Origin: Promethearchaeota archaeon | Lineage (GTDB): Archaea > Asgardarchaeota > Lokiarchaeia > Sigyniarchaeales > SOKP01 | Length of the DNA: 64,000 bases | NCBI GenBank assembly: GCA_019058365.1 | Contig: JAHPZE010000022.1 | Location: 8,750 to 72,749, forward strand | Direction of reading: 5' to 3' | Part shown: positions 28,701 to 37,825 of the stretch, in pieces | Layout: each line of letters opens with the position of its first letter | Numbering within the stretch: the stretch's first letter is position 1 | Translations under genes and position numbers: made by a program | The notes under the pieces: model-generated | Seen by the model: only the letters and a program-made list of their open reading frames with translations | Told to the model about the DNA's origin: nothing | The model's database searches: none

Positions 28701-31700
28701 ATGCCCATATCTACAGGTGAAATAAACCCTCAATATGACGCAAAAGCAATTGTAACACCACCTGACAGCCTCAGAATCACTGGACGCATGGGCGATTCCA
28801 ATTTTACGTTCTTCGGTATTGAAGAAAAAGAACTAAACTGGTGGGATAAGTTTTGGATGAATGTATTTGAGGCTTTAGCTGGAGGTGGCGACGCAATGGC
28901 ACCAGGTTCTGGTATTAATTTCCCTGAATTTACTGATGCGGAGGAGGAAAACATTAGAGATATGCTAAGAGCTGCTTCACATGCCTATACAAATCTGGAC
29001 TACTTACTTATAACAAGCGAATTGCCATCATATAATATCATTGAATATTATGAGTTCGATCATGGAACGGAAGATTATCGCACTATTGCATATGATAATT
29101 ATAAAAGTAATACGTTAGGATTTTTAGAGCAAACCATGATTCCCGCTTCAAATGGAAAGTATAATGCAATAAGACCGATGTGTATTAATGGTCGCCCCGC
29201 ATACATGTATATTAACAGCAATGATGAGTTCAATCAGCGTATCCAACCACTTTCACCGTTATATCAACCCGTTGTCATTAGTAATGAGCGATATGGAGTG
29301 CTTTTTCCAGACGATACCATCCCAGACTCTACGATTTCAGTTGATATCCAAAGCGGATTGTTAAACGATTCCTATACTTCAGGTATTGACTCTAATAATC
29401 TTACAATTTATGAATATAAGCGAGGGTATAAAGCAAAAATTCCACTCTATAGCGATGAATTTAACTATCCAATTAGTTTGATCACGGTTGAAGTTATTAC
29501 TTCAGGTGTAAGTTCAGGTCTATTATCCAGTACTTATTTTGCCACCTATGTTTCGGAAATCGAGCTTACGTCCAGTCAATATACTCTCGAAGGAGGTAAT
29601 TTATACTTTTGCGAAACTTTTGATGAGATTATTCTTTCAGCTTTTAATTTTAAAGTATTGCAAGACGAGTTTCTAGAATTAACTCAGAATTGGGAGGAAG
29701 GGACCCTCTTTTATAAAGTTCATATCCACATTCCGCAAGTGATTGCAGATACATCTACGACCGCAGGAGTTATCGATACGATATCCAGTGATGCTGGCAG
29801 AAGTGCGTTAGCTCAGACCACTCAGTATTTAATTAGTGATTTCTTTAACGTATTCACCTTAGCAAAATCATTTGCCGAAGGTGAAGCACAAAAAGATTAT
29901 ACCGTACAAGTTACAGCAATTTCCACCCTGATATCTTCTTTAGCCCTTCTGCCCGTTGTTTTCGCCTCCGCTGGAGTATCGGGTTTTATTAAAGGTGCGG
30001 TTGGCAGGACTATAGGAACAACTGTAGCAAAATATGTTGCGTCGTTGCCAGTTCAGGTACTACAAGAAGTATATGAAGAGCTTTATATTGACTCATTTAT
30101 AGAAGAAACATTACAGCATTTGGGCGACTCTACCGGTATCTGGGGCGTTATTGTCACTTCATTACGGGAAGCTATACTCGGGCCAGCAGCCGAATTCCTA
30201 GGAAGCCTCAGAGGATCTTCAAACGTAGATGTAAATACCCAGATGACCGCTCAAGAAGTTCAATTACAACAAACAAGTAATATCTTACAATCATTTTTAT
30301 GGACTGGTCATCATGTTATGCAAGAGGCAACATTAGATAATGCCATCTCTTCGGACGTATCAACTGAAGCTCAATTATTAAGTAATAATATAAATAAGAT
30401 TCAAGCCCAACTTGCAGAACTGGGACTTACTCGACAGAAGAATAAAATAAAGGCAAAATCTATATTCGGCACGGAATTCATAATTCAAGGAATCTTCTCC
30501 CTTCCTGGACTCTTCTTTGGCGGGTTCAATTTAGGCGCGATGGGAACGCTTCTTGACCTGTCAATCGATTATATGTTTGATGTCCAATTATCTCGCCACA
30601 TGATCGACAATAAAATCCAAGCGGTAACTCAAACGAAGCACAGATTAGACCTTGAAGCAAAGTATTTAGGATTAGTACGCGATGCACAAACCGTTTCTAA
30701 TATCCCTCAAGTCAAGTTCGTACTTGCCATGGCACAAGGGATTGCCACCATCAACCCAAGCCAATACAGCGCCTCCGAATTCCAAACTCAAGTACAACTG
30801 CAAATAAATCAACTCGATGCATTCGGCACAATTATAAGGTCTGTGAAAGAGAAACAGCAAAAAATCAAAGAAAGGCAGAATCAATTGGAGGTTCTAGGTA
30901 GTTCTAAAGAAAATGTCGAGAGTATAGAGCAGAAATTTCAGAATAATCCTAATCCGATACAGCTACATCTCAATCTCGAATTTCTGCCTGGAATGATTGC
31001 GTTTGAGCCTCACAGGCAAGCTCTTCGCGTCTGGAGTGAGGAAAATCCAGAAGGCATCAACCTTAACCCCCCTTCCGATTTAACACTTCCCGAATTTGAG
31101 CTCTACATAAAGAATAAATTAGGATTAGATCGAAGCCAAGAAGTTTTTCTTGCGTTAACCCTAGTTGATGAGAGTACCAATGAGATAATCCAAATCAGAG
31201 TTGATGAGAAGATTGGTGATTTAGAGATTGACGATCAAACCACCATTGGTGAGATTTCCAATGCTATGAATGGATATAATTTATATATAATGCCTCTGAC
31301 TGCGGGCGCTTGGGGTGGTATTAATTATGATCCAAATTATATTGTACCTATTTATGATTGGTTGTTTGAACCCCCTTCTGTAAAGATTATAAGAGAAAAG
31401 ATGGGAACACTATTTGATTCTGAAATTATATCCAAATATTTTAGTGATCCTGTATTACAAGAGCAACTTATAAACATATATTACCAAGTTATCACCCCTA
31501 CAGCTAGAGCTTATTTGGATAAGATTTCTACAGGAACAGTAGGATCCGTTTTTGGAGCCAATTCTATATTTAGTGGGAAAAATTCGTTTGAATGGATTTC
31601 CAGAACTGCAGAATTTTATTATTTGTTACAGTTAGAAAATTCTCCTCAATATAAAAATATGAATCTAAAACTAAAGAATGCAAAAATTAAAGAATTCAAA

Positions 31701-34700
31701 GCATATATCAGTGAAATAATCGAATTTGTATTGAAGCCTCGATTCGAGAACACATTTGATGATGCTAATAAAGGCTTAGATTTTATTAAATCTTTATTAG
31801 AAGAGAGTGCCCGATATGCAATTATGGAAATGATTTTGTTACAAATTACAGATGGAGGTAAAACTAAATTAGAAGGATCTGAGTTAGCTTCCAAATTAGA
31901 AAACTTTTTAGCTAGTTATGACAAGAATAAGTTCATTAAAGAGTTTAATAAAAAAGGTACTAAATTTGTGCAACTCCGTTTCATGGAGAGCATGCTTACA
32001 GGTGAGTGGGATACACAGATGCGCTTTGATTACACTCCATATGAAATTGGCTGGTACCGTGAGACTTTTTCATTTATGTTCCTTATTAGTGATTCTCTTA
32101 TTAAATTGTTTTTTGATGATGAGTTTGACTTAATGGCGGGGTATGATAGTAGTGCAGATAAGCATACAAGAATTCAATTTTATCAGACAATTTCGTATAA
32201 TCCAAAATATGTTCACAAAGATTTTAAAGATTTTATTGATACCGATCTTGAAGCCGTTTATAAAAAGTTAAATAATGGGTTAGCTGAAACTTTTGGAAAT
32301 TTAAAGAAGCAGAATTTCAGAATCACTGACCTCTTCCAGATGTATATTAAGGGACTAGCATATATCAATTATGCCATCAAGAATTCTAGGACCTCTGATA
32401 ACGAACTAATGCTTAATAATATCGCAATGGATACTTTAAGCACTATTTTTGGTGCGTTCTTTAAAAAAATATCTGATAAAGGTACAGCAGCTGAGATTGA
32501 GAAACAAATAGAAGTATTAGTAGTTGCTAGTAAGGTTGGAGAGATTGCTCCTATTGGTAAGATTATTAATACTATAGTAGAGACGCATAAATTAAGTCAG
32601 CTCCATCAAGCGGGAAAAGAAGATGGTTTTTGGGTAGAGGGTGAAGGAACAGGTAAAGGTCCTGACCAAATGGAATTCTATATTACTATAGCAGATAAAA
32701 TAAATGAGAAGTTAAAATCAGAGTCTATTGATAGATCCGATATTAATAAAGTTGTAAAGAAAATTCAATCTTATTTAAAAGATGTGGATTTCAAAGATGA
32801 AATTAAAGATATAGCTAAAGATATTTTAGGAGCAGCCTATAAAGATATGGCGGTCAGTGAGATTTATAATATTGTTAATAAAGAGTTCATAGGGGGTAAT
32901 CTGAAGAGAATACTTAAACAAGATGATCAGGGTAACTATCAACTTGAGTGGGATATAACAATAAATGTATATAAACGTACTGATATTGATATTGACGAGG
33001 CAAAATTAGCGAATTCAGGACTTTTCTTTGTTATAAAAGATAGAAGTGGAAAATTAGCTAAGATGACTTATTCCCAAGTTAAGCAAATGTATCCTAAATT
33101 TGATTTTAAACAAGCATGGATAGCCGTAAAGGATAGGAATAGTGGCAATGGATTAATGTCAGCAACAGAGAAGATCAATGATTTACCAGATTCATTGGAG
33201 AATGATATTTCAGATAAGTTTGGGGATATTGAAGGAGTCTATATAACAGACCATAGTGGAAAACTCTTACTCGGAAGGATATTTCTTGACAAAGATTTCT
33301 ATGAATTTGCTGTTATGGAGGATGCAGAGATTTCTCAGCTCTTAAGAGAAAGTATAGAGCATATTAAGAATTATGATTTCCCCGGCGCTGATAGGATCAA
33401 TGAATTTTTCCATCTTACATATTTACGTTCGATTTCTTGGAAGACGGGAGGGAGAATTAGCTCAATTATTCAAGATGTTGATTCAGCAATCATCCCTACA
33501 GGACCTCATAAATCAATTTTTTCCATAGAGAGAGCAGCAGTTATTCTAGGGAAAGAACATGTGATACTCAATCCAGACCGAAATAAAATTACTGAATTGA
33601 AAGGGGAATTATCTGCATTATTGAATGTTATTAATCAACTAGGTGGACTGTATACTTCCCACGAATTATATAAAGAGAGTGAAATAACTCCTAAGATATT
33701 TCCAACTAAAGATTTTGCCAATTTACATTCAAAAGAGAAGATATTTGGAATTAATGAATTTAGAACAATGTTAGAAAAAGTGGTGCCAAAGCAAGGAGGG
33801 TGGCTGCACAATAAAGATCCTTCCAACCCGTTACTTTCAGATTATTGGTATGAACATCTTGCACGATTTTCTGAATATTCTTATAATAATAAGCTAACAA
33901 AGGAACAATTTTATAAGAATTGGCTTTTAATAATTCAGAATGATTTAGAGAGAGGCTCGCCTAGTGGTTATTTCAAGGGTTTTGAAGATTTAAAAGGGAA
34001 GACCTTTACAAGTAATTTTGAGGATAAAGTTAATGATGATTTAATCCATAAAATCGATGAAGCGGTAAGTAATGCCATCGGGTATCCTTACTACATCAGC
34101 CTCCTTTCGGGAATCCTTACCATATATCATCCATTAGGATCATTAGGCTCGGGACTAATAGAGATAGGATTTCTATTACATACAGACGAAAAACAAGCTG
34201 AACTTTTGAATGATTGGAATCTAAGGGCGCTTCAAAGTGGAAGCTATAAATCGGAGGGTAGAGCTTATTTGAAGGGTTATACAGAAAACAAAGGTATCTC
34301 ATACGATAAATCTGCTTTAGTATTTGCTTCACTATTTCTATACGGATTTTATCATCATATTTCCGATAGAAAATTATCATTTGAGCTTAGCCGCGATAAG
34401 AGCTCGATTTTATCACATTATTATAGTAGATTTTTGCCGCAGAAAATTACGGATTATAAGACTGCGCTTTTTAATTTTATTTCCACAGAATTCAAATCTT
34501 ATATGGATGCTGAATACATTGATAAGCGTAATACCATTGAGAGGGGTATAATTAAAGAGTTCTTTCTTAAGGCGCTAGATAAAGCTTTAGAGATCAAGTT
34601 TAAAAAAGAACCCTGTTCTATCTATAAGCAAGAGCGTATAACAAAATTGTATAGGACTTACTTAATCAATTTTATTGATGAACCATTTCATTCACTGAAG

Positions 34701-35657
34701 CACTCGGGTAAAAAAGATTCCCTTCATGATTTTGTAAGATATCTACGGGATATAGCCCATTCAGGTAATGATGGGCTCATTACTCTGGATCCTGGGATTG
34801 CTCGACATGGAATTGCTGATCCTATCGACATTTTCATTGAATATGATAAGCTTTCAAAGATTTTGCCGGAGATAAGTCAAACCTTTAATTTTTATTACGA
34901 CTCACATAAAGAATTGGGGCATAGCACTAAGAGTCCGAATTATAGGATAGTATATGATCTTTTCTCGGGAGAGTTAAATAAGAAGATTGAAAACACATAT
35001 AATAAGCTCCTAGAAATGTTTTATAAAGTCGACGAGAATGGCAAGCTAACTACTGAGTTAAAAGATGAGCTAAATGTTAAAGAGTTTACAGGAACAGAAT
35101 GGACTTTAAACTTTTACACTGAAACAGATAAAGGTGTTAAGAAGTCGCCGACGCATCTAGGATTATCTCCTACCGGATATTCATTTAATATAAACGATCC
35201 AAAACAAGTTCATAAAGCAATTGTCACCTTACTGTTTTGTACCTTATTGGAAGATCGATGTTTTGGTGTAATCTTTGTTGCCGGAGATGATAAGAATCAA
35301 TTCTTCTATTATGATAAGTACGGGCTTTATTCGGAAGAATATTTTATGGAATCAGAACATGCGAAGAGTGTGAGATTTACAGGTTCCCACTTCTGGAATC
35401 GATATGCACCAAGTTCTTCGTTCACTAAGGCGGAGTACCAGAAGTACATCGACGAGTTAAAGGATAATCCAGATGAATATCTTAGCGTCAAGGATATTAG
35501 GAATTTTCTTGAAATGCAGCCATCTCGTCAGAACGGTGATGCTGACATTAGATATTATATTATGAATAAATTTATTAAATTCTTTTCAGAATTTTACAAT
35601 GCTGATTTCCATAAGATTGGAAACGTATATGATATAATCGAAGATCTTTTTATATAA
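3..35657 (+). CDS. Giant (>=11,884 aa, 5'-truncated) multidomain cell-surface/membrane protein: acidic ectodomain, hydrophobic segments, Ubl-like domain and Lys-rich C-terminal region
   Basis: The ORF track starts at ATG 234, but the frame is stop-free back to base 3 ([33 protein letters not shown]...), so the true start lies upstream of the window. D/E/Y/N/T-rich with many N-x-S/T sequons up to ~29.5 kb. Hydrophobic segments at ~28.4-30.6 kb. Stop TAA at 35655-35657. Confidence 0.93.
   Translation, partial: [11884 protein letters not shown]
12807..13400 (+). repeat. LamG/concanavalin-A-like protein repeat, copy 1
   Basis: YPATYSF...GHNKVL...TTGTVEYWF...[10 protein letters not shown]...[18 protein letters not shown]; aligns by eye with copies 2 and 3. 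Confidence 0.7.
13419..13988 (+). repeat. LamG/concanavalin-A-like protein repeat, copy 2
   Basis: EHKKVL...[10 protein letters not shown]...[11 protein letters not shown]...[18 protein letters not shown]. Confidence 0.7.
16857..17495 (+). repeat. LamG/concanavalin-A-like protein repeat, copy 3
   Basis: YLATYSF...DGHKKVL...STGTIEFWV...[10 protein letters not shown]...[18 protein letters not shown]. Confidence 0.7.
30954..31319 (+). other. Putative ubiquitin/SAMP-like beta-grasp domain inside the giant protein
   Basis: [35 protein letters not shown]...[12 protein letters not shown]...[14 protein letters not shown] parallels ubiquitin ([24 protein letters not shown]...[10 protein letters not shown]...LHLVLRLRGG) and the SAMP/MoaD-type tail (hydrophobic-P-x-x-x-GG). 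Eye alignment only. Confidence 0.5.
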
Positions 35658-35674: not shown

Positions 35675-37297
35675 TTATCCATATTTACTTGTGTGAACCG
35701 TCCATTTGCCAAACTTTGTTTTTAGCCACTCAATTTCGGATTCACTAATTTCTGTTCCTTCTATATAAAGGCTTTGTAGAGATTTAAGGTTAATAGTTGT
35801 TGGCGGTAAACTTCGTATAGGATTATCACTAATGGAAATTATTTCCAGCTTATCTAATTCTCCAATACAAGGAGGTAATTCTGAAATATTATTATTTCGA
35901 ATTCTTAAATCTTTCAATGTTTTTAGTTTACATATTGATTCAGGCAATCTTTCTATTTGATTTTCTCCACATTCGAGATTTACTAGTGAAGTCAATTTAC
36001 CAATAGAAGAAGGAAGTGTTGATATTTTATTACTGTCTACATCAAGCCATGTAAGAGTTTTAAGATCTCCTATTGATATAGGTATTTCTTCTAGAAGGTT
36101 TTTACTTAGAGTGAGAGTTTGTATCGATTTAAGGTTCCCAATAGAATCCGGAAGTTGCTTTATCTGATTATTATAAAGGTCTGCATATCTGAGAGAATTT
36201 AAATTCCCAAAAGATTTTGGAAGAGTCATTAATTTATTATCGCGTAAATCTAGTCTCTTTAAAGAAAGAAGATTTCCGAATGATTCTGGTAAAGTTTCAA
36301 GTTCATTATCAAATAAATTTAAGTTTTCTAATCTTTTCAAATTCCCAAATGATTCAGGTAATTTTATTAGTTTATTGTTGCTAAGATTTAACTTTTTTAG
36401 AGAAGTCAATTTTCCAAACGATTCAGGAAGCATCCTTAATTGATTCGAAGAAATTCTTAATTCTTCTAATGATTTAAGATTTCCAAATGATTCAGGTAAT
36501 TTTTCCAAATTTACAAATATCCTAAGTTTTTTTACAGATTTCAATTCCCCAATCCAATCGGGAAGACTTTTCAATTGGTCGCTTGAAATACGTAATATAA
36601 CTAAGTTTTTCAAGTTTTTTATTATTTCAGGTAATTCTTCTATATAACACCTTGCAAGATTAAGTTCCTTCACTATTCCTTCTTCCAATAGAAAGCTCTG
36701 ATCATAGCGAGAGTCTTTCGAATCTAAATAGAATTCTTTTTCTGTTAATCTTTCTAGTTCCTTTATAGCGTTCTCTTCTTCTACTAATTTGAACAGGCTA
36801 TATTTTTCTTCTCCTGTTATCAACTTCATATATTTTTCTTGGAGCAAGAATTTTTGGACGTTCTTCGTCCCGTTAAAGAATCGAGAAATTATTTCTTCTT
36901 TAAATCTTTGTTTTGCTTTTAAATCTCCGACTTCAGTCAGTCTTTTTAATAAGGGGAATGAAAGGTTGCTGTGAAGGAGTCGGGTATCATAATTATGTTC
37001 TGCCCATGCTTGAATATTTGAGCAATGAACCAAGAATCTCACATGAGGTGGAATATCTATTACTTCCACTTCAAAATTATCCTCATACATATGGTAAGGA
37101 GCATTAGCCACTTCATCTACAGACAATTCTGTTAATTCATCAATAGAATCAATTTGTTGAAGCTCTTTTAATCTGTCAGCTTGTCTATTTAGTAAAATGA
37201 TTGAGCAATGTTCGAACAATTCTCCATTTACATAAAGATTTGTCTTCTCATCTTCAAGTTTCAAAGTAATAAATTCATTTATTTTATATTCAACCAT
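35675..37297 (-). CDS. Leucine-rich repeat protein with Lokiarchaeia-type N-terminal domain
   Basis: About 13 LRRs of 23 aa (LPESFGNLKSLEELRISSNQL). N-terminal domain EYKINEFITLKLE...HCSNIQAWAEHNYDTRLLHSNLSFPLLKRL...KEEIISRF resembles a family I recall from Lokiarchaeal LRR proteins. Confidence 0.92.
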   Translation of the reverse strand: MVEYKINEFITLKLEDEKTNLYVNGELFEHCSIILLNRQADRLKELQQIDSIDELTELSVDEVANAPYHMYEDNFEVEVIDIPPHVRFLVHCSNIQAWAEHNYDTRLLHSNLSFPLLKRLTEVGDLKAKQRFKEEIISRFFNGTKNVQKFLLQEKYMKLITGEEKYSLFKLVEEENAIKELERLTEKEFYLDSKDSRYDQSFLLEEGIVKELNLARCYIEELPEIIKNLKNLVILRISSDQLKSLPDWIGELKSVKKLRIFVNLEKLPESFGNLKSLEELRISSNQLRMLPESFGKLTSLKKLNLSNNKLIKLPESFGNLKRLENLNLFDNELETLPESFGNLLSLKRLDLRDNKLMTLPKSFGNLNSLRYADLYNNQIKQLPDSIGNLKSIQTLTLSKNLLEEIPISIGDLKTLTWLDVDSNKISTLPSSIGKLTSLVNLECGENQIERLPESICKLKTLKDLRIRNNNISELPPCIGELDKLEIISISDNPIRSLPPTTINLKSLQSLYIEGTEISESEIEWLKTKFGKWTVHTSKYG

Positions 37298-37825
37298 CTG
37301 AATAAAACATATTTTCTTTTTATTTCAAGTTAAATAGTTTATTTTTAAATATGAAGGGAAAATGTGAGTTATTTAATAGAATAAAAGAAAGCAAAAATAT
37401 TTAAATTTTAAGAGATAGTTTAATTTCTGACTTTAAAAGTTATCATCACATACCTTTCTTTTTGAATCTGGGTTAATATTTTCATAGTATAGATTGTAAC
37501 CCTCTTGATTCTTGAAATAAGGCATAAGAGCTAGGAACTTATAAAATTCTATATTTTTTGTAATAAAAGATTCCAAAAATACTTTTCTAAATTAAAAAAT
37601 CTGTAGTTATATTAATTATAGGTATAAAATTTTACACTTTTAACAATGACAAAAGCAGAAATTATTGAACTTTTTTCATTTTAATTTATTTTAATGAAAA
37701 AGAGATTGACTATTTTGTAAAAAGATTTAATATATATATTGAAATTAATAAAAAGTTTCACAAAATCTATAGTTAAAACAAAAGATCCCTTGCAATTCAC
37801 TTTTGAAAGTAATTAAAAAAAAATA

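Follow-up and report, generated by a model that had tools for sequence, protein, structure and literature searches.

MARTX and large clostridial toxins have, next to a Gly/Ala-rich hydrophobic region, a multi-domain cargo that acts in a cytoplasm and measures hundreds of residues instead of forming a small tip. To our knowledge almost nothing is known about the physical interaction of Asgard archaea with other cells; cell contacts of these archaea are central to models of the origin of eukaryotes, and the Lokiarchaeia are close prokaryotic relatives of eukaryotes. The bacterial polymorphic toxin systems (CdiA-CT/CdiI and Rhs; Zhang et al. 2012, PMC3482391, as drawn on in PMC6393860) serve here as the comparison system. 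Many unrelated genes of more than 3,000 amino acids are found across Asgard genomes (Wu et al. 2022, PMC8813620, Extended Data Fig. 7). The present locus is a 64,000-nucleotide stretch of the genome of a Promethearchaeota archaeon of the class Lokiarchaeia (assembly GCA_019058365.1, contig JAHPZE010000022.1, designated C47, positions 8750-72749), called the window below, in which a giant gene ends in a Lys-rich C-terminal tail (window 31320-35657). The tail is tentatively predicted, from sequence comparison, to be exchangeable cargo of a giant surface protein, exported, kept free of glycans and delivered by contact, with a leucine-rich repeat (LRR) protein as its binding partner. This is the preferred reading, and its likelihood is put at somewhat less than even.

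Positions given without a contig refer to the window. Amino acid 1 of the tail corresponds to position 31320 and negative tail coordinates denote residues upstream of it; G-numbers designate genomes, with G000 for the genome that contains the window. This genome comprises 4.74 Mb in 54 contigs, with 29.5% G+C and an archaeal small-subunit rRNA. The tail is not a separate gene, since 31320-35657 constitutes the last 1,445 codons and the stop codon of a single open frame of 14,557 codons. The frame is intact and, with the likely ATG at C47:772, encodes 14,544 amino acids (3-35657 in the window, forward strand, the start lying before the window). The protein begins with a cytoplasmic head of 214 amino acids, followed by 10-11 strongly hydrophobic transmembrane (TM) helices (residues 215-560), an acidic, sequon-bearing ectodomain of about 11,600 amino acids, a membrane module, a ubiquitin-like (Ubl) domain and the tail. 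The membrane module contains three Gly/Ala-rich hydrophobic blocks between the ectodomain and the Ubl domain, all on the forward strand: a Gly/Ala-rich hairpin with NP at its centre (28419-28541), a second block (29910-30002) and a Gly-rich third block of marginal hydrophobicity (30462-30566). The sole Pfam match across the 14,544 amino acids is Laminin_G_3, a ConA-like lectin domain, in the ectodomain (E-value 8e-15, C47:5212-5694, residues 1481-1641). The two-partner secretion (TPS) domain, FHA repeats and VENN or PT demarcation of CdiA-type toxins were not found in a Pfam scan of the whole protein. The N-terminal anchor and the long extracellular stalk correspond to the carrier of polymorphic toxin systems, in an arrangement unlike the known bacterial secretion types.

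The original prediction, made by a model from the sequence of the window, had described the tail as nearly devoid of N-x-S/T sequons, and it contains none against 9.3 expected (minimum 1 in 2,000 shuffles). The depletion begins 638 amino acids before the tail, the last two sequons being located at 29364 and 29397. The resulting zone of 2,083 amino acids (29403-35654, forward strand) contains 0 sequons against 14.2 expected (minimum 5 in 2,000 shuffles); no other stretch of the genome is sequon-free over such a length. The same pattern is found in all homologues examined. Six long-tail homologues have 0 sequons each against 14-19.5 expected, and about 25 giants lose their sequons from the identical module position onward, whatever the tail type. 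In 41 metagenomic homologues 12 sequons were found against 256 expected. In 63 homologous sequences (51,264 amino acids) N-x-S/T occurs 10 times against 383 expected, a ratio of 0.03, while the control motifs S/T-x-N (0.92), D-x-S/T (0.96) and Q-x-S/T (0.92) are normal in the same sequences.

The cytoplasmic head of the giant is undepleted, with 5 sequons in 214 amino acids, and so are the LRR partner proteins, with 30 sequons against 35.3 expected. The ratio of observed to expected sequons in the genome is 0.91 for non-membrane open reading frames (ORFs) and 1.39 for membrane ORFs. An STT3/AglB oligosaccharyltransferase is encoded in the genome (C52:45422-46558). A cytoplasmic location would leave sequons neutral, so that a selection against them which is complete and specific for the motif argues that the tail comes into contact with the glycosylation enzyme on the outside of the cell and has to stay unmodified. 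The open frame around the STT3/AglB match is unusually long, at 1,301 amino acids.

The change from an acidic to a Lys-rich protein lies where the original prediction had placed it, at the start of the tail. The fraction of K+R is 0.128 in the tail against 0.050 in the ectodomain, and the net charge is -0.018 against -0.109. Among 1,301 non-membrane ORFs of the genome the tail lies at the 46th percentile for K+R and at the 26th for net charge, and the ectodomain at the 0.2 and 0.1 percentiles, respectively. The composition of the tail is cytoplasm-like. A simultaneous drop in G+C content (GC) had been read as a different, foreign DNA composition of the tail. The four hand counts behind it are exact (31, 31, 18 and 13 of 60, with a gene-wide mean of 20.7 +/- 3.8 per line of 60 bases), but the interpretation fails on the profiles of GC, of GC at third codon positions (GC3) and of codon usage. 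The GC is 0.341 in the ectodomain, 0.395 in 28101-31319 and 0.329 in the tail, and the corresponding values of GC3 are 0.268, 0.339 and 0.280. With both measures of the tail at the baseline of the gene, the drop is the end of a local GC-rich stretch encoding the Gly/Ala-rich module. This hump over the module (28100-31100, GC 0.39-0.43, GC3 up to 0.415) is the only clear compositional anomaly in the giant gene. The relative synonymous codon usage of the tail is marginally outside that of equal-size ectodomain chunks (0.053, where the chunks reach at most 0.047). A foreign composition of the tail was therefore rejected, the outlier being the upstream module.

The comparative evidence for exchange comes from a search with the last 2,884 amino acids against 161 genomes of the class. 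The upstream module is present in 41 of the 134 genomes of one family and in none of 26 from other families, and the tail type of the window, whole or partial, was found by local BLAST in about 14 genomes. The closest relative, G102, is 60-95% identical in the module and 27-55% identical from tail coordinate -400 to -140. At about -135 (window position about 30,900) the identity abruptly falls to 15-25% and then stays at 15-38% through to the end. The upstream junction of the cassette is placed at 30900-30990 (forward strand), where the identity with G102 changes from about 47% to 15-25%. Overall the module is 64% identical between the two proteins and the tail 24%, and tails of this type are generally 21-27% identical in pairwise comparison. 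The step at about -135 and a tail identity at background level together show that the exchanged unit includes the small domain before the GG. The border thus lies about 140 amino acids upstream of the GG, with the Ubl domain inside the cassette.

In other giants the homology ends at nested points, at about 1060, 1180, 1300 and 1420 in the coordinates of the present sequence (P0001), and the proteins diverging there end in unrelated tails, the shortest of about 370 and the longest of about 2,000 amino acids. Several tail families thus stand behind one module, and the C-terminus is polymorphic with a sharp junction. A recombined multi-domain cassette, as originally proposed, is supported by this comparative rather than by compositional evidence: the identity step, the patchy distribution and the orphan C-half described below favour it, whereas a foreign composition and a border at the GG do not hold. 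Lack of a GC3 break near 31320 together with colinear conservation in all homologues had been named beforehand as evidence that would speak against a cassette; the GC3 break is indeed absent, whereas the colinear conservation is confined to a subset of the homologues.

The tail is bipartite. Its N-half (amino acids 1-730, 31320-33509, forward strand) is 24-35% identical with the tails of G039 and G105 and comprises a helical part (about 16-266), an alpha/beta part (about 285-440), a second helical part (about 449-531) and a beta-rich part (about 532-730). The proteins of G039 and G105 share tail residues 23-758 at this level of identity and then have different C-halves. The end of their homology is marked by the motif YLRS...IQ...IIPTGPH (tail 701-730, 33420-33509, forward strand), and its form YLRS...IQ...PTGxH, the best-conserved motif of the tail, coincides with this second break. 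The C-half (amino acids 731-1445, 715 amino acids, 33510-35654, forward strand) is one compact alpha/beta-plus-helical lobe, which is colinear at 21-43% identity in G102, G047, G126, G108, G042 and metagenomic fragments. Polar positions (D/E/K/R/N) are conserved in the tail, for example N332, R334, D337, K354, D371, N874 and D875, and further R878, D913, R1075, D1137, R1143 and K1222.

An orphan copy of an alternative C-half is found elsewhere in the genome (C40:30978-33155; L048:15045-18262 with the LRR gene). It comprises 726 codons, or 704 amino acids from the first ATG, and the frame opens at a shortened copy of the junction motif (..FRSIYSFIVPTGAH..). The orphan is 44% identical to the C-half of G105, has 0 sequons against 6.3 expected and lacks a hydrophobic segment. 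The next gene on this strand is an LRR paralog (C40:33245-34258), so that the two genes form a tip-plus-partner unit as in polymorphic toxin systems (C40:30978-34258). No tail-like genes were found beside the other LRR paralogs of the genome.

Closed short forms of the protein occur in G126 (2,318 amino acids, C64, L019 3419-10372) and G105 (1,954 amino acids, C8, L016 6143-12004). Both start inside the membrane module, have no anchor or ectodomain, are almost or fully sequon-free and are adjoined by an LRR gene. Three stand-alone soluble genes of the present genome, with proper start codons, are homologous to parts of the tails of other giants (the G039b and G116/G119 types). They encode 624 amino acids (C40:21636-23510, L048:5637-7511, reverse strand; 1 sequon against 4.4 expected), 573 amino acids (C43:7113-8834, L050:5114-6835, reverse strand; 1 against 4.4) and 513 amino acids (C52:29168-30709, L049:5169-6710, forward strand; 0 against 3.2), together 2 sequons against 12 expected.

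The gene next to the tail encodes a partner protein of 540 amino acids (35675-37297, reverse strand) with a conserved N-domain and about 13 leucine-rich repeats. It is convergent with the giant gene, the two stop codons being 17 bp apart, and the protein has a normal sequon frequency and no signal peptide. For 13 giants or tail genes that were examined, the next gene downstream is an LRR gene, and the partners of long tails have in common a conserved N-domain of about 200 amino acids. No Pfam model covers this domain, and an ESM Atlas search with it gave no match. The identity of the partners follows that of the tails and not that of the modules: the values for module, tail and partner are 64, 24 and 41% between the present genome and G102, 69, 40 and 63% between G127 and G110, and 47, 0 and 35% between G127 and G126.

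Relatedness among the partners goes with the type of the C-half and not with the genome of origin. In the maximum-likelihood tree the partner of the orphan is sister to the G105 partner (99/94; 47% identity), and the G110 partner is sister to the G127 partner (100/100). Two more paralogs of the present genome are sister to the partners of tail types that are absent from it (96/92 and 88/91). The genome has nine copies of the partner family, the gene at 35675-37297 (reverse strand) and one each on C35, C49, C48, C16, C40, C30, C11 and C39. The family is large and mostly not found beside giants; some of its members form part of longer, fused ORFs (1,300-1,600 amino acids). Beyond the partner gene lie ordinary metabolic genes, and a 528-bp spacer (37298-37825) with a GC of about 0.21-0.23 separates it from an FGGY kinase gene.

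The only part of the C-terminal region that matches a known fold in the AlphaFold models is the domain before the tail. This ubiquitin-like domain (31038-31304, forward strand), followed by ...TAGAWGG (31299-31319), has a beta-grasp fold in the predicted structure, with structural matches among which is Atg8/GABARAP (19-25% identity). Of the aligned sequences the present copy alone has the GG; the five homologues differ there. A processed precursor of the ubiquitin/Atg8 type was rejected because the Gly(-Gly) processing site is not conserved.

For the tail proper, AlphaFold2 models were based on alignments of 19 and 22 homologues, with lobes of 746 and 850 residues. Tail residues 700-1445 gave a predicted local distance difference test score (pLDDT) of 78.0 and a predicted template modelling score (pTM) of 0.77, and residues -110 to 740 gave 80.9 and 0.79. 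The high pTM of the models suggests that the domains are packed into two compact lobes and not strung out like beads. The predicted structures are multi-domain, in line with the expectation of several domains in tandem, and mixed alpha/beta where a helical tail had been expected. No credible fold match for the tail proper was obtained with Foldseek against PDB (both lobes), Foldseek against BFVD (C-half only) or VIA-align, all of which were whole-lobe searches that barely cover single domains. The lack of a recognisable family is confirmed by Pfam, PADLOC, PDB sequences and the ESM Atlas, none of which gave a match to the tail. Pfam had no hit on the tail, on any member of both alignments or on nine other tails, PDB sequences had no match with the single tail sequence or with both profiles, and a word-based homologue search with the tail at near lengths was also negative. 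With HMMER only 37 relatives were found among 1.84 billion representative proteins, all unnamed or annotated as hypothetical and all from Asgard metagenome-assembled genomes. The His motifs for which a metal site had been suggested (HSLKHSG ... HKELGHS, 34689-34925, forward strand) lie in variable columns or in an insertion specific to the present sequence. In the alignments of 19 and 22 sequences, conservation stays below 80% for every His and Cys column. A metal-dependent His enzyme was rejected on these grounds, the HSLKHSG...LH stretch being such an insertion.

A cytoplasm-type composition combined with sequon avoidance, the position behind a hydrophobic module, the junctions with the orphan copy and a partner that tracks the C-half together fit an exported cargo that crosses a membrane. 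The unit swapped between strains extends from about 140 amino acids before the GG to the stop codon and consists of the Ubl domain, an N-half of 730 amino acids that is common to several tail types and an alternative C-half of 715 amino acids, the halves being joined at the conserved YLRS...PTGxH motif. The tail would leave the cell with the remainder of the giant, encounter the glycosylating enzyme and then be threaded across a membrane, most likely into a contacted cell by way of the Gly/Ala-rich hydrophobic module; it may have to stay glycan-free because of this threading. The N-half would serve in entry or processing and the C-half would be the active effector, with the neighbouring cytoplasmic LRR protein as the putative cognate binder, immunity factor or chaperone. 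A more far-reaching version, possible but doubtful, is a contact-dependent delivery system native to the Lokiarchaeia, in which the distal end of a tethered fibre of micrometre scale, made of a self-inserting Gly/Ala-rich module, a Ubl domain and cytoplasm-type, new-fold cargo of 700-1,400 amino acids, would be driven into neighbouring cells. Cargo halves exchanged between strains would each be matched by a specific binder or antidote from the large family of cytoplasmic LRR proteins. If this is true, the orphan LRR copies throughout the genome would be a record of past encounters.

Several observations weigh against delivery of the tail. The whole-lobe searches, which barely cover single domains, gave no fold of a toxin, nuclease, peptidase or other enzyme. 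The tail of 1,445 amino acids, with at least 8 sub-domains and colinear at 21-27% identity across genera, has a larger and more conserved architecture than typical toxin tips. The short forms without anchor and the soluble, ATG-started homologues lack an explained export route. On the side of the partner, the N-domain family occurs in 135 of the 161 genomes, some with as many as 20 copies, and the closest relative of the present partner (69% identity, G068) is far from any tail, with no tail or common synteny found beside it. The partners of the C-half type in the window are mutual best matches (39-43%), yet they form no resolved clade. Partners are mostly convergent to the giant gene and therefore not co-transcribed with it. 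Finally, the hydrophobic blocks could simply act as stop-transfer helices of the usual kind, so that the tail would remain in the cytoplasm of the producer.

On this last possibility rests the main rival, unlikely as it appears, in which blocks 2 and 3 are true TM anchors and the tail is a cytoplasmic scaffold or signalling hub of the producer, so that the giant, as an adhesin, would be coupled to partners inside the cell, among them the LRR protein, for anchoring or outside-in signalling. A composition typical of the cytoplasmic proteome, hydrophobic blocks upstream of the tail, a partner that is a cytoplasmic LRR protein from a large general family, the compact size and the colinear architecture across genera all agree with such a scaffold, as do the soluble stand-alone homologues and a Ubl domain of the non-cleaved interaction type, its GG being unconserved. 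It nevertheless predicts neutral sequons. Neutral frequencies are observed in the non-membrane proteome (0.91), in the head and in the LRR partners, whereas the tails have a ratio of 0.03 with normal controls; the step from 64% to 24%, the alternative C-halves and the orphan cassette would also be out of the ordinary for a housekeeping scaffold. In a second rival, contact with the glycosylation enzyme is explained by a tail that is an extracellular distal head, binding or enzymatic, that is kept glycan-free for assembly or ligand contact and does not enter a cell. The C-terminal position distal to the N-terminal anchor and the lectin-like domain of an ectodomain built for contact would suit this explanation, but it is quite improbable: the K-rich, near-neutral tail is unlike the ectodomain or the exported proteins of the genome, which are enriched in sequons (1.39) and not depleted, the sequon-free zone also includes the hydrophobic module, and it is difficult to see why such a head should have a cytoplasmic partner with a gene dedicated to it. 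The original prediction taken as a whole, a horizontal cassette of foreign composition encoding a His-based metal enzyme that is cleaved after the GG, is largely refuted and has very little probability left. Its G+C counts were numerically correct and a ubiquitin-like fold does precede the GG, but GC and GC3 of the tail are those of the gene, the His motifs belong to insertions of the present sequence with no conserved His or Cys column, the GG is missing in all five aligned homologues and the break in identity lies about 140 amino acids before it.

Exported cargo remains the preferred explanation. Motif-specific avoidance of sequons combined with a cytoplasm-like composition may serve as a marker of topology and fate that needs nothing but sequence. 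The exchange junctions and the orphan cassette predict cognate pairs of C-halves and LRR proteins, and the two confidently predicted lobes of about 750 amino acids without a known fold are targets for work on structure and function. If delivery is true, Asgard archaea would have their first described polymorphic effector system, and eukaryote-like Ubl and LRR building blocks would be tied to inter-cellular conflict or communication. If the tail is cytoplasmic instead, the avoidance of sequons needs a new explanation.

Among described domains, the Ubl domain is comparable to integrated ubiquitin-like domains such as USP7 Ubl, FERM F1, RA/PB1 and Atg8/GABARAP. MARTX and large clostridial toxins differ from the present protein in being released, whereas the latter is tethered by its N-terminal anchor; there is no sequence or fold similarity to them, and no cysteine-protease autoprocessing domain was found in the whole-lobe fold searches. 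The aloposon giants (PMC8813620) are also different, being tandem genes of 3,000-6,000 amino acids in mobile elements, and the giant family, its tails, the sequon avoidance and the LRR partner are not described in that paper. In the literature polymorphic toxins have been predicted in archaea and Asgard giant genes have been found, and nothing was seen on the present giant family. Compared with the bacterial polymorphic toxins, the host is archaeal, an N-terminal multi-TM anchor takes the place of a type V, VI or VII secretion system (T5SS, T6SS or T7SS), and the tail of 1,445 amino acids is multi-domain and colinear across genera. No toxin fold (in whole-lobe searches of the tail), catalytic motif or VENN, PT or peptidase demarcation was recognised, and the partner gene is convergent and belongs to a huge LRR paralog family. 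The features shared with the polymorphic toxins are a very large surface carrier and a conserved region that ends in an abrupt break with alternative C-terminal cassettes. The tip is two-part, with a shared proximal and a variable distal half, which recalls the division of CdiA-CT into an entry and a toxin domain. The neighbouring gene encodes a partner whose relatedness goes with the tip at least for the orphan-G105 and G110-G127 pairs, and an orphan copy of tip plus partner, opening at a short conserved junction motif, completes the resemblance.

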